This document shows positions 11,642-49,200 of a DNA stretch of 64,000 bases, piece by piece. The first letter of the stretch is position 1. The number at the start of each line of letters is the position of its first letter. The notes below the pieces were generated by a model. It was not told where the DNA came from and ran no database searches. It worked only from the letters and a program-made list of their open reading frames with translations. Source of the stretch: Escherichia coli. Its GTDB lineage: Bacteria > Pseudomonadota > Gammaproteobacteria > Enterobacterales > Enterobacteriaceae. The stretch lies in the NCBI RefSeq assembly GCF_009931435.1, contig NZ_CP043414.1, one strand, 5' to 3'. Position numbers and translations under genes: made by a program.

Positions 11642-11859
11642 AGGCGTATCCTGAAAAGAGATATGACAAACCGCGTATTATGCCATAAGTCTGAAAGAAG
11701 ATCCCGTCCCCCGCTTAAGGTCTACACTCTTCCCAAAGGCAAAAAATGTGATTTCGTACACATCTGATTTCACTGTGAGCTGGAATGAACTTATAATGCG
11801 CTTCCAATACTCTAATATTCTCAACCCAATGGCCTGCCAGGCACTAAATCTCGCTTAAC

Positions 11860-12780: not shown

Positions 12781-12799
12781 TCGTCAAAACGTAAAACAG

Positions 12800-12830
12800 A
12801 GGCGGACTCATCATCCGCCTTTTTTATTTG
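12800..12830. terminator. Bidirectional rho-independent terminator between convergent ldtB and ybiR
   Basis: Hairpin aggcggactcatcatccgcct followed by ttttttatttg; A-rich on the other side. Confidence 0.6.
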
Positions 12831-12837
12831 CCAGACC

Positions 12838-13956
12838 CTACCAGGCCGGGAGCATAACGAATAAAACGTATCCCACCAGCGCCGCCCACAACAGCATCGG
12901 TATCGAATAAAGATGAAAACGCCACCAGATACGGCGATCGTTCGCCATCCGTAATGCAATCAAATTTGCCAGCGATCCGGGTAATAAACCAAAGCCACCG
13001 ACGTTTACCGCCCATGCCAGTAATAAAGACGGTGGCACATAATTGAGGAGCAAAATCGTGCTCGGCACATTACTGATCACCTGCGATAAACCAATTGCCG
13101 TTAACCATAATCCGGGTTCGGATAAATGGCTCACATTGCTCAACACGCCCTGCAAAGCTGGCAGTTGGGTCAGCAAATGGACGTCGATAAACATCGCCAT
13201 AAATACCAGCAGCAGCGTCCAGTCCACGCTGATCACCACGCGACGAGCCAGCAGCGCAAAGCCCGCCGCTACAATCACCAGTCCCCACAGCTCTTGTTTT
13301 AACTCCAGCGCCGTCAGAAAGACGATATACAGCCCCAGACAACTCCACACCAGCCGCGGTTTCCACTCAGGTGTTTGCGCCCCCGTATGATATTGCAGCG
13401 CCTTTCCAGGGAAACAACACCAGCACAGTAGCAGGAGTGTCAGCATCATTGCGCCAGCCAGCGGTGCCATTTGGGCAATAAACCCGGCAAACGAAAGACC
13501 AGAACGACCCCAGATAAGAATATTTTGCGGGTTGCCAATCGGCGTCAGTAGCGAACCCGCATTGACTGCCAGCGCCTCAAAAATAATCAGTCGATTAACC
13601 GGGATCTCACACAGTCTTTTTAGCGTGATGGTCAGCGGAACAACTATAAACAGCGCGACATCGTTGGTCAGAAAGGTAGAAAGTAGCGCCGCCGCCAGCA
13701 CCATAAACATCGCCAGCCGTCGCTCCGTAGCAAAGCGGCGCACCATTTTGCGCCCCAGCACATCAAAATAACCGCTTAACTCCACACCTTTGGTCAGCAG
13801 CATCAGACCGCTTAAGGTGATGATGGTGTGCCAGTCGATAGCAGCAGGCCAGGATTTCGGTGCAAAGGGAACAAAAAAACTTAATCCGATGCCAACAAGA
13901 ATTAATAACTGAAAAAAACGATCGCCTTGCAGCGTGCGTAAAAAAGGCAGGCTCAT
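12838..13956 (-). CDS. ybiR: Inner-membrane transporter YbiR (ArsB/NhaD-like permease)
   Basis: 372 aa, highly hydrophobic multi-TM protein; syntenic. Confidence 0.8.
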
Positions 13957-14420
13957 TTGGCACCGTGTTTCTGGGTAAACAAACGAAAGGCATCCAGCGT
14001 CTCTTCACTAACATGGTGCTCCATGCCTTCCGCGTCGCGACGGGCGATTTCCGGACTGACGCCCAACACCAACAAGAAATTTTCGACTATCTGATGTCGC
14101 TCGCGGCTTTCCTGCGCCAGTTTCTCTCCTTCTGCCGTTAAAAACACGCCACGCCAGGGGATCATTTCAATCAGCCCCATGGTTGCCAGTCGTTTGAGCA
14201 TTTTAGCCACCGTCGGTTGCGAAACGCCCAGACGAGCAGCCATGTCCACCTGACGAGCTTCCCCCACTTCCCTGATCAAGTCAGAAATCAGCTCAACGTA
14301 ATCATCAATAAGCTCGCGCCGGTGTGCCTCTCTGACCTGGCGGAACCCTTCAACGTGCTCTTCCACATTCACTAACTGCGTCACTTTTTTTGCTGTTGGC
14401 GTACCTGCGCGACGACTCAT
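13953..14420 (-). CDS. mntR: Manganese-responsive transcriptional regulator MntR (DtxR family)
   Basis: 155 aa [31 protein letters not shown]...; recognised MntR. Confidence 0.9.
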
Positions 14421-14520
14421 TGTGCTTCCTCATTATGGTGACGCATACATAGCGTTCTCATTTCGTGCGCACATTGTAAACCAGAGTTGCGAAGGTACAA
14501 AAAATTAACGTTTTAGCAAT

Positions 14521-14547
14521 AGCTATATAATATAGCCATTGCTAAAT
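14521..14547. repeat. Left junction repeat with MntR-box-like dyad (candidate attL/target duplication)
   Basis: agctatataatatagccattgctaaat; 22/27 identical to 45328-45354; lies inside larger palindrome tttagcaatagctatat/atatagccattgctaaa (14512-14546). Confidence 0.4.
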
Positions 14548-14824
14548 ACATAAAATCAAATAAAATCATAATGTTAACAAAACAAAAAAAATAATCAATG
14601 TCGCAAAAATGTCTCACAAAACAAAAGCCATAACTTATTTGCTTGTTTTTTTATAGTGTCAGTATTAATCTAGTATATCAAAATGTTATCACTTCAATTA
14701 TTCTCTGCTTAACATTTATTTAAGAAATAATATTTTTAAGCTCTTTAAAAAAACCTTAAATAACGCTGATAGTTTCTTAGGAAAACTTAACGATAGTGGT
14801 AAATTAATCCCAAAGGACTAAAAA

Positions 14825-16060
14825 ATGGTATTAAGTAACTGTATTCAATGTCAGTCATGCAAATTTATATATAGAGTTAGGGTTGGTATTGGGTTTGATA
14901 AATACCAAAGACATTATATGGACTGTTTTGAGTGTAATATTCCTATTGTTTTTGCTATACGAACAGACCCACCAAATGCTTATCTTGAAGCGGAAGAAAA
15001 CTGCCTAATTGTTGAACATAGTACAGACCACAAGGTTGTTAACTTCCATCCGGGATGTGCTTTTAATAAAGATGAGATACATCAGTCACTGATATTCCCA
15101 TCTATTGAATTGACACAAATGATTCATAAACATATGAGGATGCCGAAAGGACAACGCCTTATAAGTGCCTCTCATCAATTTGATATTCCCAACGCCCCCT
15201 CCAAATGGAATTATTTAAAATCAATAATAAAACTTATTAATGAAGGAAAGAAAGACAAAGCTCAGAATACAGCAAAGCTTTATATGCAATCAAGAAATAA
15301 AGAGTTACCTTTGTATAATGAAGATGATAGCTATTCCTCTACATCTCTAATCTATGAGTTTTTAGATTGGCTTTTCTATCCTCGAGTACATGATATAGCC
15401 GATTCCATTAAAAAAACAATTGATGACCTTAAAGAACAAAATTTGTTGGATGATTTTTACGCTTTCTATAAAGAAAATTTAAAATCCGAAAATGAACAAA
15501 GATACATCAATATAATATCAGATTTCATGGCTCGTAGAGATCATTTCGGGCAGTTAATCTATTACGCAAGAATTAACAACGATGCAATAGACGATAAGAT
15601 AATTAGCTCTAAGAACTTCGATAATGTAAGAAATTATTATGGAGATGCTTATGAAAGTCTGACATCTAACATGACTATTTTAGCATGTATTAATAACATC
15701 GTCAGTGGAAGGGCATTCGATCAGTTCAAGCAAATGACATTGAATAAATACATAAAGGATGTAAATAAAGACAGTAAAACAAACCCATTTAAGGACAACC
15801 CTTTATTTAGCGCATTTTGTGAAGATGATTTAGAGTCAGCAATAAGAAATGGTTCTCATCATGCCTCTATATGGCATGACGGAGAGAGTATTCGATATAG
15901 AAGTGGCGGAACTGGCGCAGAAAGAGAAATAAGCTATACAAAATATATTCACCTTTGTAATAAGCTAACTCTTAAAATCGTAAGTTTGTGGTTAATTGAA
16001 CTTCATATCCAACATATTTACGAAAAAGATGATAATAGCTATGCATGGTTTCATCTTTAA
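14825..16060 (+). CDS. Hypothetical 411-aa protein with N-terminal CxxCxxC...CxxC zinc-ribbon-like cluster; orphan cargo, candidate defence/abortive-infection protein
   Basis: ORF track; A/T-rich codon usage, preceded by ~270 bp of extremely A/T-rich DNA; Cys at 6,9,12,34,37; R-x4-H (RNGSHH) near C-terminus; no family recognised. Confidence 0.5.
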   Translation: MVLSNCIQCQSCKFIYRVRVGIGFDKYQRHYMDCFECNIPIVFAIRTDPPNAYLEAEENCLIVEHSTDHKVVNFHPGCAFNKDEIHQSLIFPSIELTQMIHKHMRMPKGQRLISASHQFDIPNAPSKWNYLKSIIKLINEGKKDKAQNTAKLYMQSRNKELPLYNEDDSYSSTSLIYEFLDWLFYPRVHDIADSIKKTIDDLKEQNLLDDFYAFYKENLKSENEQRYINIISDFMARRDHFGQLIYYARINNDAIDDKIISSKNFDNVRNYYGDAYESLTSNMTILACINNIVSGRAFDQFKQMTLNKYIKDVNKDSKTNPFKDNPLFSAFCEDDLESAIRNGSHHASIWHDGESIRYRSGGTGAEREISYTKYIHLCNKLTLKIVSLWLIELHIQHIYEKDDNSYAWFHL

Positions 16061-31928: not shown

Positions 31929-31931
31929 TTA

Positions 31932-32969
31932 TCAGCCCTCCACCGGTTCGGAGACTTTGCCGATTGTCACAGCGGATTCATCAATGGCTGCATACAGCTC
32001 CGGCACTTCCACCGCGTAACCTTCATTGCGCAGGTATTTGTTTTCGAACTGCTTACGATCTTCAACAAACTCCGCCTTACGCATACGGGTATTACGCTGG
32101 GTGTAGATGTGCAGGTTAGAAAGTGGCGTAACCACCATGCGTTTACCCGGCATAAACGGCGGAATAATGGCCTGACGGCCAGCAATGGTGCTCCCCAGCA
32201 TCTGCGCAGCAATTTTTTCAGTCGGACGGTCTGCTGCCTGATACAGTCGGTATTGTTCAGCAGCGACCAGATCGGCACCGACCAGGACAACCAGACGCGG
32301 GTCATTGCGGAACTGTGCCGGAATTTTGGCGTTAATCAGATCGGATGCCATTGCATCCAGTGACGTGTAATCCCCAGCCGCATCCAGTACCACCGGATCG
32401 GTCATAATCTGATTACCACCCAGTAGCGTTTTCATGCGCTCATGCCAGCCAACGTTGACGTCTTCGCCGTTCGGGTTGTCGGTCGGGTTCGTGGTTTTTG
32501 CGCGGCTCTTACCGTTAAAACCAATACGCAGCATATCCAGCGCAAAAGCCTGCGTGGTGAAGGCCTGGACAAGGTTATAGAACTCGTTTTCGTCCTTTCC
32601 AGCATTTGCCCATACCGAAAGCAGATCCCAGCGCAACGCCGCGCAGCTGTCTGTCTCAGCCAGGGAATAATCGTTACCGTCAACGCCGACCTGACGAATA
32701 AAACGGCCATTTTCGCTGCGACCGGTATGCAGTACGGAGGAACCGACAGAAATCACCTGGCCACTTAACTGGTCAACATCCAGACAGGTGATCATGTTCA
32801 GGAACTCCACAGACTCCAGCAACGCCAGACGCAGCGCGTTTTCCTGCGGGTCATTCAGGGAAAAATAACGACTGGTATCACGTGCGCCGAACTGCTGCGC
32901 CATCCCACTCGAATATTTATCCAGTAAATCCCGCGCACGGTTATTAAGGTGCATAAAACTCCCTCGCAA
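31932..32969 (-). CDS. Major capsid protein, gpN-like
   Basis: 345 aa between scaffold and terminase small subunit; central GFNGK...VGW motif region resembles P2 gpN as recalled. Confidence 0.7.
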   Translation of the reverse strand: MRGSFMHLNNRARDLLDKYSSGMAQQFGARDTSRYFSLNDPQENALRLALLESVEFLNMITCLDVDQLSGQVISVGSSVLHTGRSENGRFIRQVGVDGNDYSLAETDSCAALRWDLLSVWANAGKDENEFYNLVQAFTTQAFALDMLRIGFNGKSRAKTTNPTDNPNGEDVNVGWHERMKTLLGGNQIMTDPVVLDAAGDYTSLDAMASDLINAKIPAQFRNDPRLVVLVGADLVAAEQYRLYQAADRPTEKIAAQMLGSTIAGRQAIIPPFMPGKRMVVTPLSNLHIYTQRNTRMRKAEFVEDRKQFENKYLRNEGYAVEVPELYAAIDESAVTIGKVSEPVEG

Positions 32970-33015
32970 TTAAGCGATAATAAAAATGTTCTGTATTAAT
33001 CAGCGGCAGTGCGAA

Positions 33016-33819
33016 TTACAGGAAATTAAATTTCCCGGCTTTATCTTTGATACTGCGCCCCGGTGTGCGGGTGGATTTATTACCCAAATCGTTAAAGCGT
33101 TTAACGATATCTTTCGCATTATCACGAATAGCCGCAAATTCTTCCGTGTCCACTACCTCAGCAATAGTGTCAACATCGCCCTGGACATCGTTCATCTGGC
33201 TTTCAATTTTTGCCACACGACCTTCCAGTTCATTCACTGCATTGGCCAGCGCCTGCAACTTATCATCACCCTGCCCGGAATCATCCGACTGCGATTCGTC
33301 TTCAAATTTCGGCTTAATGCCAAATAATTTCTGCCAATTCTTCATTCTGTTTTCCTGTTGAATTTTGCCATCACGGGAAATTACACAGCTGTAATACCCC
33401 TGCTTTGATAATTTTTTGCGCCGACTACTAAAGCGCAGCCGTGTGGTGCCAATACTGGCTGGCGTATCCGTTACCGCCAGCCCCTTCAGATAAGTACGCC
33501 CGCTACCGCGCCAGTTCTCCTCCGGCTCAATGGAGAAGAACAGAAGCTGGTCTTCATGGTTTGCGAAAATCAAACGCATATTTGGGCAGAGGCTGACGTA
33601 AAGTCGCGCCAGTCCGTCTTCACCATCTTTCCAGGTGGCCTCCAGTACCTCCCCGAAATTACCGCAATCGTCCTCATGTTCCGGCCAGATTAAGGCAACG
33701 AAGTGGCTATAGTCATAGGTTTCCCCCATATCAATAATCCACTGCCGTTTAATCTCTCTGCCGTCAACGGTATCCCCTTCGGTAGCCACACACAGCCAGT
33801 CAGTTTTTAAATGTGACAT
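33016..33819 (-). CDS. Capsid scaffolding protein, gpO-like
   Basis: 267 aa, YLKGLAVTDTPASIGT segment similar to P2 gpO; divergent from terminase large subunit gene. Confidence 0.7.
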   Translation of the reverse strand: MSHLKTDWLCVATEGDTVDGREIKRQWIIDMGETYDYSHFVALIWPEHEDDCGNFGEVLEATWKDGEDGLARLYVSLCPNMRLIFANHEDQLLFFSIEPEENWRGSGRTYLKGLAVTDTPASIGTTRLRFSSRRKKLSKQGYYSCVISRDGKIQQENRMKNWQKLFGIKPKFEDESQSDDSGQGDDKLQALANAVNELEGRVAKIESQMNDVQGDVDTIAEVVDTEEFAAIRDNAKDIVKRFNDLGNKSTRTPGRSIKDKAGKFNFL

Positions 33820-33901
33820 ATCCCCCCTGCTTCACTCCCTGACGCTGCAAATCAATTATTGCCAAATATAACCGCCACCGCATTACGCTTTATTCTTTTC
33901 A

Positions 33902-33926
33902 GTTCGGTTATAACGCTTTGCCGAAC
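33902..33926. promoter_or_regulatory. Dyad-symmetry element GTTCGG-N13-CCGAAC in divergent late promoter region
   Basis: Perfect 6-bp inverted repeat about 55-80 bp upstream of terminase ATG; candidate activator-binding site. Confidence 0.3.
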
Positions 33927-33980
33927 AGACGCGAATTAACACCACCGTTTTTTCATTACAGCCACGGCATAATTATCCGC

Positions 33981-35756
33981 ATGGCTAAATACTCCGAAGA
34001 ACTAAAAGGCGTTGTTCGCGCACTTTATTTGCGCCGCTATACGCCAAAAGAAATTGCATCAGAATTAAATCTGCCGAATGCGCGGATCGTTTACTACTGG
34101 GCGGAAAAATACAGCTGGGCAGATTTACTCAGTTTTGAAAGCACAGAAGAAGCGATCGAACGCCGTTACCAGCTGCTGGCCAGTCGCGATAACAAAACCG
34201 ATCTCGACCTGAAAGAAATGGACATGCTTATTGCACACGCCACGAAGCTGCGTGCTCAAAGCAATAAGCATAAAGAGAAGATGGCCAGCGGACAGGGAAG
34301 CGGGCAAGCAGCTGCGCGGGACAACAATGACGATGAATCCCGCAGCAAACGCAAATACAAGAAAAACGATATCTCATCGCTGACCCAGGAAGATTTTGAC
34401 GCTTGGGCAGAAGAGCATCTTTTTGAATACCAGAAACACCTGCGCCTGAACATTGGCCAACTGGTGCGAAACATCCTCAAAAGCCGCCAGATTGGTGCCA
34501 CTTGGTATTTTGCGTATGAAGCGTTTGAAAACGCCGTAATAACCGGCGATCCGCAAATCTTCCTGTCCGCCTCCAAAGCTCAGGCAGAAGTATTCCGTTC
34601 GTATATCGTCAACATTGCCGAGCAGTATTTCGGCATCACGCTGACCGGCAACCCGATCCGTTTAAGCAACGGCGCAGAGCTGCGTTTTCTCTCCACCAAT
34701 AAAAATACAGCGCAGTCCTACAGCGGCCACCTGTACTGCGACGAATATTTCTGGGTGCCGAACTTCACCCGGCTTAACGAAGTAGCCAGTGCGATGGCCA
34801 CGCACGACAAGTGGCGCACCACCTACTTTTCAACGCCGTCAGCCAAAACACACCAGGCGTACCCGTTCTGGACAGGTGAGGAATGGACACAGGGCAGTAA
34901 AAAACGAGCGGCAGTTAAATTCCCGTCCTTTGACGAAATGCGCGATGGCGGACGTCTTTGCCCGGATGGTCAGTGGCGCTACGTCATTACGATGGAAGAT
35001 GCCATTGCGGGCGGCTTTAACCTGGCCAACATCGAGAAACTGCGCAACCGCTACAACACGGCCACTTTTAACATGCTCTATATGTGCGTGTTCGTGGACA
35101 GCAAAGACTCCGTTTTCAGTTTCGCGGATCTGGAAGCCTGCGGCGTGGAGGTGGACACCTGGCAGGATCATAACCCGGATGCCCTGCGCCCCTTCGGAGA
35201 CAGACCCGTCTGGGGCGGTTTTGACCCGGCACGCAGCGGCGATTTGTCGTGTTTCGTCATTGTCGCCCCGCCGATGTTTGCCGTGGAGAAATTCCGCGTT
35301 CTGAAAGTGATTTACTGGAAGGGAATGAACTTCAGATACCAGGCAAAACAGATCGAACAGCTGTTTAAAAAATACAACTTCACGTATCTGGGCGTTGACG
35401 TTACCGGCATTGGCCAGGGTGTTTTTGACAATATCCAGCATTTCGCCATGCGTGTGGCCGTCGCCATTCGTTACGACATGAACACCCAAAACCAGCTGGT
35501 ACTGAAGGCGGCAGACGTGGTGGAAAGCCAGCGCATTGAATGGGACAAAAACCTGAAAGAGATCCCGGCCAGTTTTATGTCCGTGCGCCGAACCACCACA
35601 CAGAGCGGCAACGCCATGACGTTTGTCGCAGACCGCAGCCAGGACACTGGTCACGCAGAGGCATTCTGGGCAATCACCCACGCCCTGCATAACGAGCCTC
35701 TGAACTACGAAAACAAACCGAAATCCCGCTGGGGTGTGAGGAACAAAGCAGCATGA
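33981..35756 (+). CDS. Terminase large (ATPase) subunit, gpP-like
   Basis: Track ORF starts at TTG 33918; ATG at 33981 gives ~591 aa, the size of P2 gpP; divergent from O-N-M-L. Confidence 0.75.
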   Translation: MAKYSEELKGVVRALYLRRYTPKEIASELNLPNARIVYYWAEKYSWADLLSFESTEEAIERRYQLLASRDNKTDLDLKEMDMLIAHATKLRAQSNKHKEKMASGQGSGQAAARDNNDDESRSKRKYKKNDISSLTQEDFDAWAEEHLFEYQKHLRLNIGQLVRNILKSRQIGATWYFAYEAFENAVITGDPQIFLSASKAQAEVFRSYIVNIAEQYFGITLTGNPIRLSNGAELRFLSTNKNTAQSYSGHLYCDEYFWVPNFTRLNEVASAMATHDKWRTTYFSTPSAKTHQAYPFWTGEEWTQGSKKRAAVKFPSFDEMRDGGRLCPDGQWRYVITMEDAIAGGFNLANIEKLRNRYNTATFNMLYMCVFVDSKDSVFSFADLEACGVEVDTWQDHNPDALRPFGDRPVWGGFDPARSGDLSCFVIVAPPMFAVEKFRVLKVIYWKGMNFRYQAKQIEQLFKKYNFTYLGVDVTGIGQGVFDNIQHFAMRVAVAIRYDMNTQNQLVLKAADVVESQRIEWDKNLKEIPASFMSVRRTTTQSGNAMTFVADRSQDTGHAEAFWAITHALHNEPLNYENKPKSRWGVRNKAA

Positions 35757-36814
35757 GCAAAAAGAAACGCTTCGTTAAGCGCGACCCGCGCGGCGATAAA
35801 TCAAAAAAGATGAGCATTATCACGTTCGACAAACCGGAACCAGTGCTGACCACCGGCACGGATTACCGTGATATCTGGTATGACAACGCCGCAGATCACT
35901 ACACCCAGCCGATTGACCGGCTGGCGCTGGCGCAACTTATCAACCTTAACGGCCAGCATGGTGGCATCATCCACGCCCGAAAAAATATGATTGTGTCCGA
36001 TTACCTAGGGGGCGGTCTGACGTATGACCAGCTTGAAGCCGCAGCGTTTGACTATACGACCTTCGGAGATATCGCGATTGGCAAAATCCGCAATGGCTGG
36101 GGAGACGTGATCGGGCTGGAGCCTTTACCCGGTCTGTATATCCGCCGCCGTAAACTCAGGGATAACGCAGAAAATGTACCCGGTGATTATGTGGTTCTAC
36201 AGGAAGGAGAGCCGCAAATCTGGCCGCAGGAAGACATTATTTTTATCAAAATGTATGACCCCCAGCAGCACATCTACGGGCTGCCGGATTATATCGGAGG
36301 GGTGCATTCGGCCTTACTGAACAGTGAGGCGGTCATTTTCCGCCGTCGCTACTACCATAACGGCGCCCATACGGGTGGCATCCTGTACACGCGTGACCCC
36401 AGCATGACGGATGAAATGGAAGAAGAGATTGAACAGCAGCTGCGTGACAGCAAAGGGATCGGCAACTTCTCCACCATTCTGGTGAACATTCCAGGCGGGG
36501 ACGGTGACGCCATCAAATTCATTGAAATGGGGGATATCTCTGCAAAAGATGAATTTGCCAACATCAAAAATATCAGTGCGCAGGACATTCTCAACGCTCA
36601 CCGCTTTCCCGCAGGGCTGGCCGGAATTGTCCCGCAGAATACTGCCGGGCTGGGTGATGTTGAAAAGGCTGAAAGGATTTACAAGAAAAGCGAGATAGCG
36701 CCCATTCAGCGCCGGTTTATGACCGCTGTTAACAACGATCCCGAAATACCTGAACGGCTGCATCTTAACTTCGATTTAAGTTACACAGAATCAACGGATA
36801 AGGATGCGGCATGA
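35753..36814 (+). CDS. Portal protein, gpQ-like
   Basis: 353 aa, start overlaps terminase stop; P2-type P-Q arrangement. Confidence 0.75.
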   Translation: MSKKKRFVKRDPRGDKSKKMSIITFDKPEPVLTTGTDYRDIWYDNAADHYTQPIDRLALAQLINLNGQHGGIIHARKNMIVSDYLGGGLTYDQLEAAAFDYTTFGDIAIGKIRNGWGDVIGLEPLPGLYIRRRKLRDNAENVPGDYVVLQEGEPQIWPQEDIIFIKMYDPQQHIYGLPDYIGGVHSALLNSEAVIFRRRYYHNGAHTGGILYTRDPSMTDEMEEEIEQQLRDSKGIGNFSTILVNIPGGDGDAIKFIEMGDISAKDEFANIKNISAQDILNAHRFPAGLAGIVPQNTAGLGDVEKAERIYKKSEIAPIQRRFMTAVNNDPEIPERLHLNFDLSYTESTDKDAA

Positions 36815-36864
36815 GGCGAAAAAGGCTAAAATCCAGGCATCATTTAACAGCTGGAGCATGGAAT

Positions 36865-37134
36865 ATGCGAGTTCTGAAAATCGAATGCCCGGAATGCGGC
36901 TCAAAGGCTGTTATTCGTAAAACAAACCGGAAGCACCGGCAGATTGCGGATATTTACTGCGCATGTTCAGATGTGGAGTGTGGCCATACTTTTGTTATGA
37001 ACCTGACGTTCTCCCACACTCTCAGCCCCAGCGCTAAAACGGGTGATGCGATGGTGCAAAAAATACTGAATGCACTTTCACCCGATCAGCGCCAGATGGC
37101 ATTAGACCTACTGAAAGCGCCCCCCGCCGCCTGA
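36865..37134 (+). CDS. Ogr/Delta-family zinc-finger late-gene transcription activator (C-terminally extended)
   Basis: From ATG 36865: MRVLKIECPECG...YCACSDVECGHTF matches C-x2-C...C-x4-C-x2-TF spacing of Ogr/Delta/186 B. Confidence 0.6.
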   Translation: MRVLKIECPECGSKAVIRKTNRKHRQIADIYCACSDVECGHTFVMNLTFSHTLSPSAKTGDAMVQKILNALSPDQRQMALDLLKAPPAA

Positions 37135-37137
37135 AAT

Positions 37138-37170
37138 GCCCCCATTCTGGGGGCGTTGCCCTTCCTTTTT
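37138..37170 (+). terminator. Rho-independent terminator after ogr-like gene
   Basis: Hairpin gcccccattctgggggc followed by gttgcccttccttttt. Confidence 0.6.
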
Positions 37171-37433
37171 AACCATTTCGCGAACCTCTCCCGCAAGCTC
37201 TCCAATCCAGGCCAAAGCGATTGTTTTCTCTCTCTGGTTACTTTCGTAAACATGGGCAATTTTGGCCAATAACTCAATGCGTTCCAGCTGTGCCGACGCC
37301 TCCAAAAGATCCATTTAGCCCCCACAAGCAATAAATAACTGGATATACATACAGTATACCTTAAAGCACGAATTGTGAAATTTAATTTCCTGTCATCTAC
37401 TGACAAATGAATGCCTTTCACATACTTACACCG

Positions 37434-39458: not shown

Positions 39459-39651
39459 GGTTAACCCACTTGCGCCAGAAATCTATCAGGAAGGCCACTA
39501 CCAGCGGTAGCCAGAAAACCGCACTCAGAGTGATTAACCCTAAGTCCTCAGCGTCGTGATCAAATTCATCCGGGCATTCGTCCCATAAGAGAAAAGCGAA
39601 AGTGATACAGGCAAACAAGGCATAAAAGCCGGTGATAATTTCCGTCATCAT
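39451..39651 (-). CDS. Small hydrophobic protein (2 predicted TM helices)
   Basis: 66-aa ORF overlapping dam stop and gpA-like start. Confidence 0.3.
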   Translation of the reverse strand: MMTEIITGFYALFACITFAFLLWDECPDEFDHDAEDLGLITLSAVFWLPLVVAFLIDFWRKWVNRG

Positions 39652-40517
39652 GCCACCACCGCCCGAACATCGATCGCAGGGTTAGCAGGTGACTTAAGAA
39701 TCAGCTCAGCGGCCATTTTCTGGCTTGCAGCTGCTGCACCCACACTACGTGGCGCATTTACCCGAACAGCGTCGAATCCTGCATACAGGTAATGCACCAT
39801 TTCCAGATCGCTATTTGACGCGACAACCTTAATCCCACGCTCAGTCAGGCGGCGCAGCTTACGCGCCAGCCGTCCCTGATCCATGTGCGAAAAACCGCGC
39901 TCATGGTAAGCGGTGAAATTATCGCTATCAGTCAGGTAAGGCGGATCACAATAAACAACGTCATGCCCGTCCCTTACCAAATCAAGCGTTTCTGAATAGT
40001 GGGCAGTAATGAACGTTGCACGTTTCGCTTTTTCAGCAAAAGCGCGGATTTCATCAGCAGGAAAGTAGGTTTTTTTGTACTTACCAAAAGGAACATTGAA
40101 CTGGCCACGGCGATTGTATCGGCACAGGCCATTGAAGCAGTGACGGTTCAGATAAAGAAAACGCGCCGCAGCTTCCACAGATTCAGAACCAAAGGATTTG
40201 CCTGATTGGTTGAAGGCATCACGCACCGCGTAATAGAAAACAGCGCGGCTTTCTTCATTGCCTAATGAACCGGCAGAAAATAAAGCCTCCAGCTCAATGA
40301 GCAATGCATCAGTCTGATAGGCCATTGTCTTATACAGATTAACCAGGTCGGGATTCACATCAGCGATCAGGTACTCGCCATAATCCGTATTCATCATGAC
40401 AGCACATGAACCGGCAAAAGGTTCTATCAGGCGCTTGCCCTCCGGCAGATGGGGAAGCAACTGCGGCATAAGGCGGGCTTTACTGCCCACCCACTTAAGC
40501 GGAGTTTTTACTGCCAT
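39648..40517 (-). CDS. DNA adenine methyltransferase (Dam-like N6-adenine MTase), prophage-encoded
   Basis: 289 aa with N-terminal FAGS (EPFAGSCAV) SAM motif and DPPY catalytic motif (VVYCDPPYL). Confidence 0.8.
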   Translation of the reverse strand: MAVKTPLKWVGSKARLMPQLLPHLPEGKRLIEPFAGSCAVMMNTDYGEYLIADVNPDLVNLYKTMAYQTDALLIELEALFSAGSLGNEESRAVFYYAVRDAFNQSGKSFGSESVEAAARFLYLNRHCFNGLCRYNRRGQFNVPFGKYKKTYFPADEIRAFAEKAKRATFITAHYSETLDLVRDGHDVVYCDPPYLTDSDNFTAYHERGFSHMDQGRLARKLRRLTERGIKVVASNSDLEMVHYLYAGFDAVRVNAPRSVGAAAASQKMAAELILKSPANPAIDVRAVVA

Positions 40518-42619: not shown

Positions 42620-42721
42620 TACAGGGTTATATAAGGCTGCATTCGAAATGTGGAGCCAGATTAATTCGCGTTTCGAGAAGTGTCAATCACAATTTCTCGA
42701 ATCGAGATTTATGGATTCGTT
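42620..42721. promoter_or_regulatory. Lysis-lysogeny switch region with operator-like inverted repeats
   Basis: TTCGAGAA-N14-TTCTCGAA perfect 8-bp inverted repeat (about 42671-42700) and CGAAAtg...cgTTTCG, between divergent regulators. Confidence 0.4.
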
Positions 42722-43303
42722 ATGAGCACATTCAAAATTGACCTGAACGTTGACAGCACCCCGATTCTGGATCGGGTGATCGAGGCTTACGGATTTACGC
42801 AGAAGTTACAGCTAGCAGAACATCTGGACATGGCTGCCAGTTCTCTATCATCACGCTATAAACGTGGAGTTTTCCCAGCTGATATCGTCGTTAAATGTGT
42901 TGCTGAAACAGGCGCTAACCTGGAATGGCTAGCTACTGGTCACGGCCCCAAATTTAATGATGAAGAATTAGACATTCTCAGAATTCCACGCAGCAAGATC
43001 GTTGATGGCCAGCTTTACGACTCAGGCACTCTTATGCTTGATAAAGTCACTTTCCTACCAGGTAAATCACTACCACAACAGCCGTTATGCGTTTTGGATG
43101 GTCTTGTACAGTACATCGTTGACCAGTCTTACTCTGAAGTTTATGACGACGATTGGCTGGTTGAAGTAGAAGGAAAAATTAGCATTCGTACACTGACAAG
43201 AATTCCAGTACGCAAAGTAAGAGTTAGTGGCGTGGGCATGGCTTTTGATTGTGGCATCGACGACATAAAAATCATTGGCCGCGTAGTTCTGACGATTAAA
43301 TAA
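42722..43303 (+). CDS. CI-like prophage repressor (186 CI-type)
   Basis: Track ORF starts at GTG 42680; ATG 42722 gives 193 aa (MSTFKIDLNV...); int immediately downstream. Confidence 0.55.
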   Translation: MSTFKIDLNVDSTPILDRVIEAYGFTQKLQLAEHLDMAASSLSSRYKRGVFPADIVVKCVAETGANLEWLATGHGPKFNDEELDILRIPRSKIVDGQLYDSGTLMLDKVTFLPGKSLPQQPLCVLDGLVQYIVDQSYSEVYDDDWLVEVEGKISIRTLTRIPVRKVRVSGVGMAFDCGIDDIKIIGRVVLTIK

Positions 43304-43304
43304 A

Positions 43305-44360
43305 ATGAGTGTTCGTAAACTTCCTACTGGCGAATGGATCGCCGACTTCTACACCGTCAACCGCAGCAATGGTAAAAACGGGAAGCGTATACGTAAAAAA
43401 TTTGCCACTAAGGGAGAAGCCCTGGCATTTGAGAATCACACGCTTCAAAAGGTAGATAGTGCGCCGTGGTTAGGTGAAGGGAAAGATAAACGAACATTAA
43501 TCGACCTGATTACAATGTGGTACGAGCGCCACGGCGTTGCCCTACGCAATGGTAAAAAGCGTAAAGACGCAATGACCTGGGCGGCGGAGTGTATGGGTTT
43601 TCCGCTGGCCACTGAGTTTAATGCCCAGCTGTTTACAGCATACCGTGCAAAAAGGCTTGAAGGGCATTATGCCCGTACTAACCGTGTTTCTAAGGTTTCA
43701 CCTAAAACAATGAACCTTGAACACGCATATTTTCTGGCTATGTTCAATGAACTGAAACGGATCGGTGAGTGGTCAGCCCCTAACCCACTGGAGAACGTCA
43801 GACAGTACCGTACAGATGAAACTGAAATGGCATTTCTCACTGCTGAGGAAATTGATCGGCTTTTGCTGGAATGCAAACGCAGTAAAGTAAGTTATTTAGA
43901 GTTAGTCGTAAAAATCTGTCTGGCGACTGGCGCAAGATGGAATGAAGCGGCAACACTCAAAAGTTCCCAGATAGCCGGCGGAAAAGTCACCTTCATAAAA
44001 ACAAAAGGGAAAAGGAACCGTTCCATTCCGTTAGATGATGAACTGCTGGCTGAACTACCCGAAACAAAAGGCGCTCTGTTTCCAAAGCCCTGCTATAACG
44101 CTTTCCGTTCCGCTCTGGAACGTGCTGGCATTGAACTACCAGCAGGTCAGCTTACCCACGTACTACGCCATACATTTGCCAGCCACTTTATGATGAACAG
44201 CGGCAACATTCTGGTTCTCCAAAAAATCCTCGGCCATGCCGATATCACTATGACAATGCGGTATGCGCATTTCGCCCCAAGCCACCTTGAAGACGCTGTG
44301 CGACTTAATCCCTTAAAATGCCGCAGCAGCTTAGAAATACTGTCGAGTACCAAAACATAA
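43305..44360 (+). CDS. int: Tyrosine-type phage integrase
   Basis: 351 aa; C-terminal catalytic region HVLRHTFASH...LGHADITMTMRYAHF (R, HxxR, Y). Confidence 0.85.
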   Translation: MSVRKLPTGEWIADFYTVNRSNGKNGKRIRKKFATKGEALAFENHTLQKVDSAPWLGEGKDKRTLIDLITMWYERHGVALRNGKKRKDAMTWAAECMGFPLATEFNAQLFTAYRAKRLEGHYARTNRVSKVSPKTMNLEHAYFLAMFNELKRIGEWSAPNPLENVRQYRTDETEMAFLTAEEIDRLLLECKRSKVSYLELVVKICLATGARWNEAATLKSSQIAGGKVTFIKTKGKRNRSIPLDDELLAELPETKGALFPKPCYNAFRSALERAGIELPAGQLTHVLRHTFASHFMMNSGNILVLQKILGHADITMTMRYAHFAPSHLEDAVRLNPLKCRSSLEILSSTKT

Positions 44361-44380
44361 ACAACAAAGATAAAAGGTCT

Positions 44381-44962
44381 CTAACCTGTTTTCAGCAACA
44401 ACCACTGGAGGAAAACAACAACAATGTAGATTAAAGTTACAGACCCCAGAAACAGCAATAGTTGACAAAAATGAATAAAGGCCGGATGGTGAAGTTTTTG
44501 AGGAACCAAGGTTATATTTCGTGCAATTCCTTCTTTACATCTCACTGTGAGCAACGCGGGTAAGTCAGTATTTATCGACATAACCTCACATCGTATAGAT
44601 TCATGTGGTGCAAGATAATCAAACAACATAACCTGCCTTTCTTCGGCATCACTCTTAATTGTGTAATGCCTTGAGGGCCAAATGTTTACGTACATAGGTG
44701 GGTAATTGAAAATTATCTCCACATTAGTAGCAGGTTCTTTTCCTTCGTTTTTAAAGGCATAGGATTTTGTATGCACCACCTGTTTTGCCTTAACAATTTC
44801 ACCTTCAGCATTACGTAACGGCTCGTTAATTAAATAGCTATATTGGTGAAGCTCTCCATAGCAAATTTTCGCTCCATTTTTAAAAATCTTATTGATAAAT
44901 AAGGTAAAAACAGGAACGAAAAGTGCAAATATTTCTTTCCCATACTGAGTAAGTATATTCAT
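44381..44962 (-). CDS. Hypothetical 193-aa protein with C-terminal TM helix; orphan cargo adjacent to int
   Basis: ORF track; A/T-rich; hydrophobic C-terminus AFIHFCQLLLFLGSVTLIYIVVVFLQWLLL; convergent with int; weak RBS. Confidence 0.4.
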   Translation of the reverse strand: MNILTQYGKEIFALFVPVFTLFINKIFKNGAKICYGELHQYSYLINEPLRNAEGEIVKAKQVVHTKSYAFKNEGKEPATNVEIIFNYPPMYVNIWPSRHYTIKSDAEERQVMLFDYLAPHESIRCEVMSINTDLPALLTVRCKEGIARNITLVPQKLHHPAFIHFCQLLLFLGSVTLIYIVVVFLQWLLLKTG

Positions 44963-45104
44963 TACTTGTCCACAAAAAGTTGAAATGGTTACCCACCGTG
45001 TTCCTAAAGCAGTCGTTCACCCTACTCTAGTTCTTAGAATAGAAATTCTACATAACTTCAAGCAGCTAACTCAACATAACAATTGAAAAGGTAATCACTC
45101 TGTA

Positions 45105-45260
45105 AGCGTACCCATTTTAATTTCAGCCGCTTTCTGGCTTGCAGCCGCTACCCCCGCATTGCGCGGTGCATTTCGCCCCAAGCTACCTTGAAGAAGCTGT
45201 ACGCTTAACCCCTTAAAATGTCGCAAAATTGTCGCGACAGCTTAGAAACACTGCCGAATA
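45105..45260. pseudogene. Fossil fragments of a related element: dam-like 3' end (minus sense) fused to int-like 3' end (plus sense)
   Basis: 45121-45180 about 75 percent identical to dam 3' region 39703-39760; 45168-45260 about 90 percent identical to int 3' end 44268-44350 but with 1-nt deletion and ~11-nt insertion. Confidence 0.5.
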
Positions 45261-45327
45261 CTCACGAATATTAACTAACGTAACTTATTGATAACACTGT
45301 AAGTTACTGTTTTTCGTAGATAGTTAA

Positions 45328-45354
45328 TGCTTTATAATATAGCCTGTGCTATAT
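45328..45354. promoter_or_regulatory. Right junction repeat containing MntR box (ATAGC-N4-GCTAT) upstream of mntS
   Basis: tgctttataatatagcctgtgctatat; palindrome ATAGCctgtGCTAT matches MntR operator architecture; 22/27 identical to 14521-14547. Confidence 0.5.
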
Positions 45355-45412
45355 CTGTATGTAATGCAATCATCCCTCAAGGATCGACGGGATTAGCAAG
45401 TCAGGAGGTCTT

Positions 45413-45541
45413 ATGAATGAGTTCAAGAGGTGTATGCGCGTGTTTAGTCATTCTCCCTTTAAAGTACGGTTAATGCTGCTCTCTATGTTGTGCGATATGG
45501 TCAACAACAAACCGCAGCAAGATAAACCTTCCGATAAATAG
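45413..45541 (+). CDS. mntS: Small protein MntS (manganese homeostasis)
   Basis: 42-aa ORF MNEFKRCMRVFSHSPFKVRLMLLSMLCDMVNNKPQQDKPSDK with strong aggagg RBS; below ORF-track cutoff. Confidence 0.8.
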   Translation: MNEFKRCMRVFSHSPFKVRLMLLSMLCDMVNNKPQQDKPSDK

Positions 45542-45812
45542 CGGCGTCGCGGTACGCCGCTTCACTCCTGCTTTTATGCAGGCACAACGCGTTTTGCTCT
45601 GAAAAACCCCACTTTTTGTCGGATTTGCAATCCCCTTCGCAAAAGATTTGTTCGTCAGTAGTTGACCTGAACGGCAGCTCGCTCTATCTTCTTGCAGCCC
45701 TGCGTATATTGCGGCTCGCGGATGCGGACCCTTTTCCCCTCTTCACGCACTCTTGCAGGTATTGACCCTTGACGCCAGGGTAAGCACATGGCGTTTGTTA
45801 CGATAGTGGCAT

Positions 45813-47396
45813 ATGAATTTAACCCTCAAAGAATCGCTTGTTACCCGTAGCCGGGTATTTAGCCCGTGGACTGCGTTCTACTTTTTACAGTCGCTATTAA
45901 TTAACCTCGGCTTAGGTTACCCCTTCAGTTTGCTATACACCGCCGCATTTACGGCTATTTTGCTTTTGCTATGGCGAACATTGCCTCGCGTGCAAAAAGT
46001 TCTGCTCGGCGTCAGTTCACTGGTCGCCGCTTGTTATTTCCCTTTTGCACAGGCCTACGGCGCGCCTAACTTCAATACCTTGCTGGCATTGCATTCCACC
46101 AATATGGAAGAGTCGACCGAAATCCTGACGATTTTTCCGTGGTACAGCTACCTGGTCGGCTTATTTATTTTTGCGCTCGGCGTAATAGCAATCAGGCGGA
46201 AAAAAGAGAGCGAAAAAGCGCGCTGGAATACCTTCGACAGTCTGTGTCTGGTATTCAGTGTGGCGACATTTTTTGTTGCTCCCGTGCAAAATCTGGCCTG
46301 GGGCGGCGTATTTAAACTGAAAGATACTGGCTATCCGGTATTTCGTTTTGCTAAGGATGTCATCGTCAATAATAACGAGGTGATTGAAGAGCAAGAACGG
46401 ATGGCAAAACTTTCCGGAATGAAAGATACCTGGACGGTCACTGCCGTTAAGCCGAAATATCAGACCTATGTGGTGGTGATCGGTGAAAGTGCGCGTCGCG
46501 ATGCCCTCGGTGCCTTTGGCGGTCACTGGGATAATACCCCGTTTGCCAGCAGCGTTAACGGTTTGCTTTTTGCTGACTATATTGCCGCCAGTGGCTCCAC
46601 GCAGAAATCGCTTGGCTTAACACTCAATCGCGTAGTCGATGGCAAACCACAGTTTCAAGATAACTTTGTCACCCTGGCAAATCGCGCGGGCTTCCAGACC
46701 TGGTGGTTTTCCAACCAGGGTCAAATCGGCGAATACGATACCGCTATCGCCAGCATCGCCAAACGGGCAGATGAAGTGTACTTCCTGAAAGAAGGTAATT
46801 TTGAAGCAGATAAAAACACGAAAGACGAAGCGTTACTGGATATGACCGCTCAAGTGCTGGCACAAGAGCACTCGCAACCGCAGCTGATTGTTCTACATCT
46901 GATGGGCTCACATCCACAGGCCTGCGACCGGACACAAGGCAAATACGAAACCTTTGTGCAATCGAAAGAAACGTCGTGCTATCTCTATACCATGACGCAA
47001 ACGGACGATTTACTGCGTAAGCTGTACGATCAGTTACGCAACAGCGGCAGCAGCTTCTCGCTGGTTTACTTTTCTGACCACGGTCTGGCCTTTAAAGAGC
47101 GCGGCAAAGACGTGCAATACCTTGCCCATGATGATAAATATCAGCAGAATTTCCAGGTGCCTTTTATGGTCATTTCGAGCGACGATAAAGCGCATCGGGT
47201 GATTAAAGCCCGCCGCTCTGCCAATGACTTCTTAGGCTTTTTCTCCCAGTGGACGGGAATTAAAGCGAAGGAAATTAACATCAAATACCCGTTTATCTCT
47301 GAGAAGAAAGCCGGGCCGATATATATCACCAACTTCCAGTTACAGAAGGTAGATTACAACCATCTCGGAACCGATATTTTCGACCCGAAACCTTAA
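45813..47396 (+). CDS. opgE: Phosphoethanolamine transferase OpgE (YbiP)
   Basis: 527 aa, N-terminal TM helices plus sulfatase-like domain; syntenic. Confidence 0.85.
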   Translation: MNLTLKESLVTRSRVFSPWTAFYFLQSLLINLGLGYPFSLLYTAAFTAILLLLWRTLPRVQKVLLGVSSLVAACYFPFAQAYGAPNFNTLLALHSTNMEESTEILTIFPWYSYLVGLFIFALGVIAIRRKKESEKARWNTFDSLCLVFSVATFFVAPVQNLAWGGVFKLKDTGYPVFRFAKDVIVNNNEVIEEQERMAKLSGMKDTWTVTAVKPKYQTYVVVIGESARRDALGAFGGHWDNTPFASSVNGLLFADYIAASGSTQKSLGLTLNRVVDGKPQFQDNFVTLANRAGFQTWWFSNQGQIGEYDTAIASIAKRADEVYFLKEGNFEADKNTKDEALLDMTAQVLAQEHSQPQLIVLHLMGSHPQACDRTQGKYETFVQSKETSCYLYTMTQTDDLLRKLYDQLRNSGSSFSLVYFSDHGLAFKERGKDVQYLAHDDKYQQNFQVPFMVISSDDKAHRVIKARRSANDFLGFFSQWTGIKAKEINIKYPFISEKKAGPIYITNFQLQKVDYNHLGTDIFDPKP

Positions 47397-47432
47397 AAAC
47401 AAAAATCCGCCCCGAGAGGCGGATTTTTTATA
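47397..47432. terminator. Bidirectional terminator between convergent opgE and ompX
   Basis: aaaaatccgccccgagaggcggatttttta: GC hairpin flanked by A-run and T-run. Confidence 0.65.
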
Positions 47433-47444
47433 TCACCGAAGTGA

Positions 47445-47960
47445 TTAGAAGCGGTAACCAACACCGGCAATCCAGGTGCCTACGTCAACGCTACGAATAC
47501 GGCTCTGCTCGTAAGAGAAGTCCAGAGCAACGTTTTCCATCGGGTTAAACTGCAGACCTGCACCGTAGGAGAAACCGTAGTCGCTGGTGTCGTGTTTGTA
47601 GGTCGGGTATTCAGTGGTCTGGAATTTACCGTAACCCACACCCACTACACCGTAGATGCTTGCCCAGTCGTTAATGCGGTAAGCCGGACCAGCAGTGATG
47701 CCGTAGTACTGGTTTTTGTTGTAGTCACCAGAGCTTGCAGTACGGCTTTTCTCGGTGTAAGTGAAAGAACCGATCACACCCAGCGGGCTGTTGTCTTCTT
47801 CATAGCGGTATTTCAGGTTGAAACCGCCCATTTTGTTCATTTGGCCCTGAGCGTCGCTCTGTGCGTAACCGCCAGTTACGGTAGAAGTCGCAGCTACGGA
47901 AGTACCTGCGGTGAAAGCCAGAACTGCGGCCAGTGCTGAAAGACATGCAATTTTTTTCAT
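47445..47960 (-). CDS. ompX: Outer membrane protein X
   Basis: Start at ATG 47958-47960 (MKKIACLSALAAVLAFTAGTSVA...), 171 aa; C-terminal aromatic residue. Confidence 0.9.
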   Translation of the reverse strand: MKKIACLSALAAVLAFTAGTSVAATSTVTGGYAQSDAQGQMNKMGGFNLKYRYEEDNSPLGVIGSFTYTEKSRTASSGDYNKNQYYGITAGPAYRINDWASIYGVVGVGYGKFQTTEYPTYKHDTSDYGFSYGAGLQFNPMENVALDFSYEQSRIRSVDVGTWIAGVGYRF

Positions 47961-48312
47961 AACCACCTCAAATGTGATTCAAATAAGTCCTAAGTTTTAA
48001 ATATATCAAAAATTAATGGGAAACTCTTCGCGATTTATGATGTCTAACGGGCCATTTCATGTAACAGAACGTTTCCATACACCGCTATCCATCTAAATTT
48101 AAATCACTTTTTCAGAGAACTGCGTAAGTATTACGCATGTATTCCCTGTCATTCATCCAGATTATTCCTAATCACCAGACTAATGATTCCATCAATCCTG
48201 GCGCATTTTAGTCAAAACGGGGGAAAATTTTTTCAACAAATGCTCAACCAGCATTGGGTATATCCAGTACACTCCACGCTTTACTTAGGTTTAGATATTT
48301 GTGGGAGAAAGG

Positions 48313-49200
48313 ATGCCTGGTTCATTACGTAAAATGCCGGTCTGGTTACCAATAGTCATATTGCTCGTTGCCATGGCGTCTATTCAGGGTGGAGCCTCGT
48401 TAGCTAAGTCACTTTTTCCTCTGGTGGGTGCACCGGGTGTCACTGCGCTGCGTCTGGCATTAGGAACGCTGATCCTCATCGCGTTCTTTAAGCCATGGCG
48501 ACTGCGCTTTGCCAAAGAGCAACGATTACCGCTGTTGTTTTACGGCGTTTCGCTGGGTGGGATGAATTATCTTTTTTATCTTTCTATTCAAACGGTCCCA
48601 CTGGGTATTGCGGTGGCGCTTGAGTTCACCGGACCACTGGCGGTGGCGCTGTTCTCTTCTCGTCGCCCGGTAGATTTCGTCTGGGTTGTGCTGGCGGTTC
48701 TTGGTCTGTGGTTCCTGCTACCGCTGGGGCAAGACGTTTCCCATGTCGATTTAACCGGCTGTGCGCTGGCACTGGGAGCAGGGGCTTGTTGGGCTATTTA
48801 CATTTTAAGTGGGCAACGCGCAGGAGCGGAACATGGCCCTGCGACGGTGGCAATTGGTTCGTTGATTGCAGCGTTAATTTTCGTGCCAATTGGAGCGCTT
48901 CAGGCTGGTGAAGCACTCTGGCACTGGTCGGTTATTCCATTGGGTCTGGCGGTCGCTATTCTCTCGACCGCTCTGCCTTATTCGCTGGAAATGATTGCCC
49001 TCACCCATTTGCCAACACGGACATTTGGTACGCTGATGAGCATGGAACCGGCGCTGGCTGCCGTTTCCGGGATGATTTTCCTCGGAGAAACATTGACACC
49101 CATACAGCTGCTGGCGCTCGGCGCTATCATCGCCGCTTCAATGGGTTCTACGCTGACAGTACGCAAAGAGAGCAAAATAAAAGAATTAGACATTAATTAA
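48313..49200 (+). CDS. rhtA: Threonine/homoserine exporter RhtA (DMT family)
   Basis: Start at ATG 48313 (MPGSLRKMPVWLPIV...), 295 aa, 10-TM permease. Confidence 0.85.
   Translation: MPGSLRKMPVWLPIVILLVAMASIQGGASLAKSLFPLVGAPGVTALRLALGTLILIAFFKPWRLRFAKEQRLPLLFYGVSLGGMNYLFYLSIQTVPLGIAVALEFTGPLAVALFSSRRPVDFVWVVLAVLGLWFLLPLGQDVSHVDLTGCALALGAGACWAIYILSGQRAGAEHGPATVAIGSLIAALIFVPIGALQAGEALWHWSVIPLGLAVAILSTALPYSLEMIALTHLPTRTFGTLMSMEPALAAVSGMIFLGETLTPIQLLALGAIIAASMGSTLTVRKESKIKELDIN

Follow-up and report, generated by a model that had tools for sequence, protein, structure and literature searches.

A dam/int chimera at the right end of a P2/186-like Escherichia coli prophage as a probable attachment-site arm and a possible remnant of a tandem phage genome

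The window, i.e. the whole 64,000-nucleotide stretch of Escherichia coli DNA which was analyzed here (contig NZ_CP043414.1), carries a complete P2/186-like (Peduoviridae) prophage of ~30.8 kb between mntR and mntS. At its right end a cargo gene, ORF193, is followed by a short chimera of dam-like and int-like sequence. On balance, we regard 14538–45344 as one complete mobile prophage, whose segment 44381–45328 would be what is left of a second, tandem phage genome after its collapse, together with its cargo. The int-like half of the chimera most likely continues to function as the P arm of the attachment site. The features on which this description rests are the following:

14522–14537: attL core GCTATATAATATAGCC, left end of the prophage
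14538–45344: complete P2/186-like (Peduoviridae) prophage, ~30.8 kb, between mntR and mntS
14599–14615, plus strand: P'-arm tandem repeat TGTCGC-N5-TGTCTC, oriented like the repeat of the P arm
39648–40517, minus strand: resident intact dam, 289 aa (Pfam MethyltransfD12)
43305–44360, plus strand: intact tyrosine integrase gene int (int_Y), 351 aa (Pfam Int_N and Phage_integrase)
44381–44962, minus strand: cargo gene ORF193, convergent on int; the two stop codons are 20 bp apart
44963–45120, minus strand: upstream region of ORF193 (U)
45074–45069 and 45050–45045, minus strand: −35 and −10 elements of a promoter-like site in U, predicted by a consensus scan
45121–45173, minus strand: ~53-nt dam-like stub, homologous to the 3' part of a gene for a D12-class adenine methylase
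45168–45175: dam/int junction GTGCATTT, a short-homology join
45168–45245, plus strand: int-like stub, the last ~25 codons of an X-type int, non-coding and running into attR
45219–45235, plus strand: direct tandem repeat TGTCGC-N5-TGTCGC within the int-like stub; candidate arm-type Int sites of the P arm
45246–45328: rest of the phage-side arm of attR (P arm), from the stop position of the int stub to the core
45329–45344: attR core GCTTTATAATATAGCC, right end of the prophage

The two cores have the sequence GCT(A/T)TATAATATAGCC in common (14522–14537 and 45329–45344), and the prophage-free E. coli genome L002 provides a host alignment to 11514–14547 and 45325–48900 of the window. Because this empty-site alignment reaches 45325 and both ends share the core, the right boundary is unambiguously the core at 45329–45344 and not the end of int. 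The first-pass annotation had considered this boundary ambiguous, either directly after int or at 45328; the core and the empty-site alignment settle the question close to the second option and thereby fix the prophage at 14538–45344. With respect to its gene content it is a 186-type member of the Peduoviridae with cI, cII, fil and an apl-like switch. From left to right the order is attL, a 411-aa cargo ORF, the tail, lysis and head genes, ogr and the gene of replication endonuclease A, then a 66-aa ORF, dam, DUF2732, fil, cII and the apl-like gene, and finally cI (42680–43303), int (43305–44360), ORF193, the chimera and attR. In the window cI is located directly beside int, in contrast to an X-type sibling prophage, where a 222-nt fragment ('P-loop NTPase fold') and a hypothetical gene of 1494 nt lie as cargo between the two (L001 3208–4991, L032 31483–33266). 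A scan of 44200–45800 against Rfam gave no credible RNA family.

The dam-like 3' end, which the first-pass annotation had located within 45121–45180, was recovered at 45121–45173. Gapped local alignment of 45100–45168 against the whole window on both strands placed the top match on the 3' end of dam (39705–39752), with a score of 39 compared to 26.5 ± 2.2 (maximum 32) for 60 dinucleotide shuffles (z ~5.6). Furthermore, a repeat finder aligned 45126–45173 without gaps to the resident dam at 39712–39759 (79%). Read on the minus strand the stub yields NAPRNAGVAAASQKAAEI, the corresponding stretch of the resident Dam being NAPRSVGAAAASQK(M)AAEL, and the motif NAPR..G.AAASQK.AAE is conserved in frame. 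Third codon positions account for 8 of the 12 nucleotide differences to the resident dam (p ~0.02), and the codon changes are synonymous in seven cases and non-synonymous in four. Since the differences are biased to third positions and the conservation is in frame, the stub descends from a functional, diverged dam allele and not from the resident gene. Its identity to the dam genes of family members varies between 77 and 84%; the resident dam, with only 79%, and the dam of the L001/L032-type sibling prophages, with only ~77%, were both rejected as its source. The reading frame of the stub continues to a stop at 45095–45097 and ends in ...AAEIKMGTLTE*. Only ~18–26 C-terminal codons are left and the catalytic domain is missing (the Pfam methylase domain covers residues 9–257 of the resident Dam), i.e. 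a functional methylase cannot be encoded. A 43-aa ORF with a TTG start is predicted across the chimera (45095–45226, minus strand), in which antisense int sequence is fused in frame to the dam C-terminal codons; it is the same in all carriers, so that its conservation is uninformative.

The counterpart of the junction, GCGCATTT, is present both in the resident dam (39752–39759) and in the resident int (44264–44271). In agreement with the first-pass annotation, an int-like 3' end follows this shared stretch: 45168–45261 matches the 3' end of the resident int (44267–44350) at about 78–80%, and the repeat finder gave 80–81% for 45168–45218 plus 45226–45261 against 44267–44317 plus 44315–44350. 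The stub starts just past the position of the catalytic Tyr codon (MRYAHF) and the catalytic residues are missing. The 1-nt deletion that had been described for it, and with it the non-coding state, could be confirmed by comparison with the resident int and the intact sibling int, both of which lack the deletion (located between 45203 and 45204). The ~11-nt insertion described along with it turned out to be the ancestral state: a three-way alignment with the sibling prophage L001 unveiled that the 11 nt are present in the stub and in the intact sibling int and are deleted in the resident int. As a result of this deletion the resident int is shifted in frame and ends in ...RLNPLKCRSSLEILSSTKT, the intact sibling int of L001 ending in ...RLNPLKCRKNVATA; over aa 1–343 the resident Int and the intact Int of L001 are 95% identical. 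Over the coding part, both int 3' copies of the window and the one of L001 are mutually ~10% apart and roughly equidistant, and 23 E. coli genomes have intact int genes whose 3' ends are 91–94% identical to the stub. The last ~95 nt of the resident int (44267–44360) represent the inner, diverged copy of an int-3'/P-arm segment. A possible extension of the P-arm homology of this inner copy into the stop region of ORF193 was discarded as unreliable, being an A/T-rich gapped match which includes the conserved KTG* codons. Judged by these comparisons, both fragments of the chimera originate from a related but different phage and not from the resident genes.

Exactly two sites in the 64-kb window fit the pattern TGTCKC-N5-TGTCKC (0.07 expected), one per att arm and both in the same orientation, the P-arm repeat ~95 bp and the P'-arm repeat ~60 bp away from the core. 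For P2 and 186 at least two direct arm-type repeats have been described on each side of the core, with the 186-type consensus tgccGCCActt (Nilsson & Haggard-Ljungquist 2011, PMC3448106). Because of their placement and in analogy to P2/186, we infer that the TGTCGC repeats are candidate arm-type Int sites. The sibling prophage L032 shows the same two repeats, the first in the arm on the attL side and the second within the 3' end of its intact int, and in the viable Yersinia phage vB_YenM_324, which integrates at a tRNA 3' end (tRNA core), AGTGTCGCAAATGTGTCGCA is found in the last int codons and GTGTCGCAAAAGTGTCGCA in the opposite arm. As arm-type sites inside the last ~25 int codons imply that coding sequence and attachment site overlap, the P arm would overlap the coding 3' end of int in this phage group.

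In the window, the 11 nt deleted from the resident int correspond to one unit of the tandem repeat AATGTCGCAAAATTGTCGCGAC. By this deletion the inner int copy has lost one arm repeat; its other repeat is mutated (TGCCGC) and no core is nearby. The outer copy is frameshifted and truncated and carries the intact repeat pair beside the core. The two copies thus appear, from their sequences, to split the ancestral functions, with the coding frame kept by the inner and the arm repeat next to the core by the outer one. Furthermore, the stub arm adjoins the core which is common to attL, attR and the empty attB, and the segment 45246–45328 is conserved with X-type prophages and missing from the empty site. 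An interpretation of the int-like half as a mere fossil is not supported, as the tandem TGTCGC repeat common to both att arms is present in the stub; what looks like a fossil is most likely a working attachment-site arm. The arrangement resembles the attP of P2 and 186 (PMC3448106) in that a tyrosine integrase gene beside attP is transcribed towards it, that two direct repeats stand on each side of the core, and that TG(T/C)CGC is similar to tgccGCCActt. It differs from them in that the candidate P-arm repeats of the window belong to a second int 3' end, truncated and frameshifted, and are separated from the working int by ~0.8 kb of cargo; the core of the window, unlike that of the compared P2/186 attP, is located in the mntR–mntS intergenic region.

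The segment 45169–45324 was present in 29 of 5426 complete E. coli genomes, six of which show the arrangement of the window. In the remaining 23 an intact annotated integrase runs directly into the equivalent of this segment, followed by attR and mntS (91–94% identity). Two copies of the stub sequence were found among the 5426 genomes only in the 6 chimera carriers, and the region from ORF193 to the stub was never found there without an adjacent int. The 20 bp between the stops of int and ORF193 leave no att core between the intact int and the scar. In order to describe the mobility of the element, the window was compared with the carrier genomes L034, L035 and L036. The right-end module of 4.8 kb, which spans the early genes, cI, int, ORF193, the chimera and the P arm, is 99.5–100% identical across the carriers, with differences of 0.1–0.5% from the window, whereas the right host flank (13.6 kb) differs by 2–2.8% among three backgrounds (window, L034/L036 and L035). 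Because the module is near-identical across hosts with diverged flanks, is never found without int and is not separated from int by a core, the scar is part of the phage genome and is transmitted together with it. The events which formed the scar predate the spread of the phage module; as all carriers share one identical module, the order of these events is not recoverable. The scar is also larger than stated in the first-pass annotation, since it includes ORF193 and its upstream region. Outside the right end the phage is modularly mosaic. The capsid/terminase/portal region (31224–37249 in the window, 6068–12954 in L034/L036) is only ~88% identical to L034 despite a right end of 99.9% identity, and the tail region is ~87% identical to L035. 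L034 and L036 carry a gene for a 'putative phage abortive infection protein' (Abi) between ogr and A, which the window lacks.

These data bear on two explanations that dispense with a phage-borne scar. The chimera could owe its existence to chance similarity or to an assembly artefact, and the dam match is in fact short (~50 nt at 79%). Its score stands far above the shuffled sequences, the top match in the window falls on dam, amino acids are conserved in frame and the differences are biased to third positions. The structure is moreover identical in 6 complete E. coli genomes, 1 IMG/VR contig and 3 further public contigs from independent projects, which excludes the artefact that had been considered at first and reduces this explanation as a whole to a practically negligible one. 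According to the first-pass annotation, the chimera is the leftover of a dam–int deletion in an earlier or tandem prophage that occupied the same chromosomal site; in this version it would lie outside the present prophage, which would end directly after int. The short-homology join of dam and int at GCGCATTT, the origin from a related phage and the tandem-like arrangement are in line with this proposal and are retained here. The location outside the present prophage and the earlier occupant of the chromosome have to be given up: the att core expected between int and scar is absent, the host/phage boundary maps to 45325–45344, the only P-arm repeat of the prophage sits in the scar, and the scar, which never occurs without adjacent int in 5426 genomes, is 99.5–100% identical in three host backgrounds whose flanks differ by 2–2.8%. 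We therefore consider an earlier chromosomal occupant very improbable.

For ORF193, a beta-sandwich with one TM helix at each terminus is predicted (AlphaFold pLDDT 86). Searches in Pfam, PHROG and PADLOC revealed no family, and a fold search gave generic beta-sandwich matches only. A total of 41 homologs were obtained, those outside the present element all with at most 70% identity; among GenBank phages, vB_YenM_324 carries a homolog at 71%. An alignment unveiled a TTGAA-type motif in U which is common to the upstream regions of ORF193 homologs. In L004, L006 and L010 the homologs come after the tail genes, with transcription directed to the P' arm; the stop of the homolog and the start of the arm repeat are ~85 bp apart in L008 and L014. 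All informative contexts of ORF193 homologs lie on the opposite side of attP from the ORF193 of the window.

Tandem polylysogens and their collapse by deletion are classical for lambda and P2. In the reading that we prefer on balance, a second related phage genome would once have been arranged head-to-tail with the present one, either as a tandem lysogen or as an equivalent unequal recombinant. Its ~0.95-kb remainder (44381–45328) would comprise ORF193 (minus strand), the promoter region of this gene, the ~53-nt dam fragment (minus strand), the int 3' end (plus strand) and the P arm. Short-homology deletions would have removed everything between these pieces, one of them leaving the GCGCATTT join of dam and int and another one eliminating the internal hybrid attP (~250 bp) between the first int and ORF193. 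The product would be a single excisable unit with the cargo ORF193 between int and attP, in which the int-3'/P-arm segment is duplicated and each copy keeps one job. In the orientation of the window, the order of a whole prophage is P' arm, ORF193 (minus), upstream region, tail genes to A (minus), dam (minus), early genes, cI, int (plus), P arm and core. The pieces found in the window, i.e. ORF193 (minus), U, dam stub (minus), int stub (plus), P arm and core, follow the same order on the same strands (comparison with L004, L014 and L032): since ORF193 homologs stand after the tail genes beside the P' arm, ORF193 followed by dam and then by int, P arm and core is the whole-prophage order. The diverged duplicates to be expected from a tandem arrangement are likewise found, as the int 3' copies are ~10% apart and the dam stub is 77–84% identical to the dam genes of the family. 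Two public contigs indicate, as assembled, that large short-homology deletions do occur in the present element, and both of them retain the chimera: in a food metagenome contig (L040, UOZF01000842, 1917–1921) int at window position 43467 is joined to the 567-aa tail gene at window position 17827 with a 5-nt microhomology, and in L038 (SKEK01000955.1, 6349–6350) the window segment 20789–38153 is missing with a 2-nt overlap.

The tandem origin shares with known tandem polylysogens that two related genomes would stand head-to-tail at one att site and that internal deletions would leave a composite between the outer attL and attR. It differs from them in that such lysogens were not observed at mntR–mntS, that only ~0.95 kb of the second genome is left, and that the composite itself is a transmissible phage. 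No tandem lysogens or intermediates at mntR–mntS were found in 5426 E. coli genomes, and no trace of a hybrid or internal att core was found between int and ORF193, so that the tandem model must assume its deletion. The model is weakened by its need for two or three separate deletions. That two unconnected junctions should leave no more than ~53 nt of dam between them is improbable, except if one complex event produced the piece or if ORF193 was once located just downstream of dam.

It is this last point from which a different origin can be derived, namely that a cassette of dam 3' end, U and ORF193 was moved into the 3' end of int by illegitimate recombination, with no tandem prophage involved. 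ORF193 and its promoter would then once have been located just downstream of dam, at the variable dam–A junction of the donor. The joins would be GCGCATTT and a position just past the int stop, the dam stub would be passenger flank, and the tail ...AAEIKMGTLTE* would be the native Dam C-terminus. This requires only two junctions and explains why the short dam piece directly abuts U. The dam–A junction is indeed variable, with a direct overlap in L032, a 66-aa ORF in the window and a 70-aa ORF in L035, and a cargo hotspot of P2-like phages between int and primase is described in a recent preprint (bioRxiv 10.64898/2026.02.27.708500). Furthermore, the contig L018 (see below) has cargo between int and attP and no dam piece, so that a tandem genome is unnecessary for the architecture. 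However, dam was located upstream in none of ~30 contexts of ORF193 homologs, the informative ones being all adjacent to tail genes or to the P' arm, no Dam with the peptide AAASQKAAEI was detected in 100,044 species genomes (0 matches to a degenerate pattern of this peptide), and the ~10% difference between the int 3' copies is left unexplained by this model alone. A dam gene convergent on int in relatives, which had been named beforehand as speaking against a deletion product, was looked for and not found. U, the dam stub and a closer ORF193 were absent from the complete E. coli genomes except for the 6 carriers, and at the DNA level U was not found outside carriers of the element in E. coli genomes and GenBank phages. 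With respect to a donor, GenBank phages gave only the 71% ORF193 homolog of vB_YenM_324 and IMG/VR (exact 20-mers) only the same element; a hybrid Dam C-terminal query of a 5.8-billion-protein set returned resident-type Dam fragments only, and a 20-mer scan of metagenomes returned 3 contigs, all with the same chimera. The absence of a donor in these searches is not decisive, and we rate the cassette transfer as possible but rather unlikely.

An architecture similar to that of the window was found in L018 (IMGVR_UViG_3300030500_000142), where int is followed by a KAP-NTPase cargo gene, a short int-3' relic with arm repeat and a tRNA core. The cargo gene is as follows:

1236–3020 of L018, minus strand: KAP-family P-loop NTPase gene, 594 aa, between int and the tRNA-type attP core

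The C-terminus of the L018 int is replaced by a private one which lacks the arm repeat. Second copies of the int 3' end were not found in L013, L016, L019 and L020. Since L018 shows it without any dam piece, the separation of int from its candidate arm sites by a cargo gene is recurrent, whatever the route. A much more tentative and, in our estimation, rather doubtful generalization would be that, where arm sites are located in the int 3' end, cargo enters the int–attP interval only via duplication of this segment, with copies that divide the labor between coding and Int binding, and that tandem collapse is the general route. If this were true, the collapse of tandem lysogens would bring accessory genes from the hotspot on the tail side past attP to the int side, and int-3' relics beside att cores, with L018 as second case, could serve as a genome-wide marker of cargo capture.

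A comparable duplication of an overlapping functional segment is known from elements with a replacement 3' end, i.e. phages and islands which target tRNA genes or gene 3' ends: as the overlapping segment is present twice, both functions survive the insertion. In contrast to these elements, the duplicate in the window is the phage's own int 3' end with its attP arm and not part of a host gene, and the duplication was not made by site-specific recombination. According to the preprint on defence hotspots in P2/P4 elements (bioRxiv 10.64898/2026.02.27.708500), the int–att interval holds a minority of the P2 accessory systems, and cargo at this position is atypical for integrated elements. Most of the pseudogenes are tiny fragments in intergenic regions, many derived from core genes, and the authors regard them as remnants of intense recombination. 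The window resembles such a P2-like int–att cargo hotspot in that its accessory gene is flanked by tiny fragments of core genes (dam and int), and the chimera is a clear instance of the class of small core-gene remnants described there. It differs in that ORF193 is no recognised defence gene (no PADLOC match). The overlap of int 3' end and arm and the dam/int chimera are not described in the parts of the preprint that were consulted; beyond its remnant class, the window adds the overlap of arm sites and int, a duplication with an apparent division of labor, and a collinearity which points to a tandem origin.

The prophage provides a sequence-level example of how a P2-like phage may gain an accessory gene between int and attP despite the overlap of int and att arm, and it renders a route for cargo capture across attP testable. 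For annotation, it follows that int-like stubs are unsuitable for inferring extra or degraded prophages or for trimming prophage ends. The remaining biology of the element is ordinary phage mosaicism.

Some minor observations concern the host site and the cargo. The attB core GCTATATAATATAGCC is embedded in the AT-rich, partly palindromic sequence AATAGCTATATAATATAGCCTGTGCTATAT (14510–14550 and 45320–45360 in the window, 2990–3050 in L002) and is located between mntR and mntS, ~70 bp upstream of the mntS start codon. Upon integration phage DNA is substituted for all sequence upstream of the core, and integration might alter the control of mntS by MntR. The cargo hotspot proximal to attL is filled in the window by the 411-aa ORF (14825–16060, plus strand), which gave no match in Pfam and PADLOC; at this place the sibling L004 carries a gene for a PIN-domain protein together with an ORF193 homolog, and the sibling L032 an AAA ATPase and a serine O-acetyltransferase. 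The ORF193 family (homologs P0003–P0040) comprises conserved, unannotated two-TM beta-sandwich membrane proteins, which are encoded by P2-like prophages in many Enterobacterales. Near mug and rpoD of Scandinavium (L008), a member of this family has persisted on its own together with the adjacent P'-arm repeat; this isolated remnant suggests that the gene was kept after decay of the prophage.
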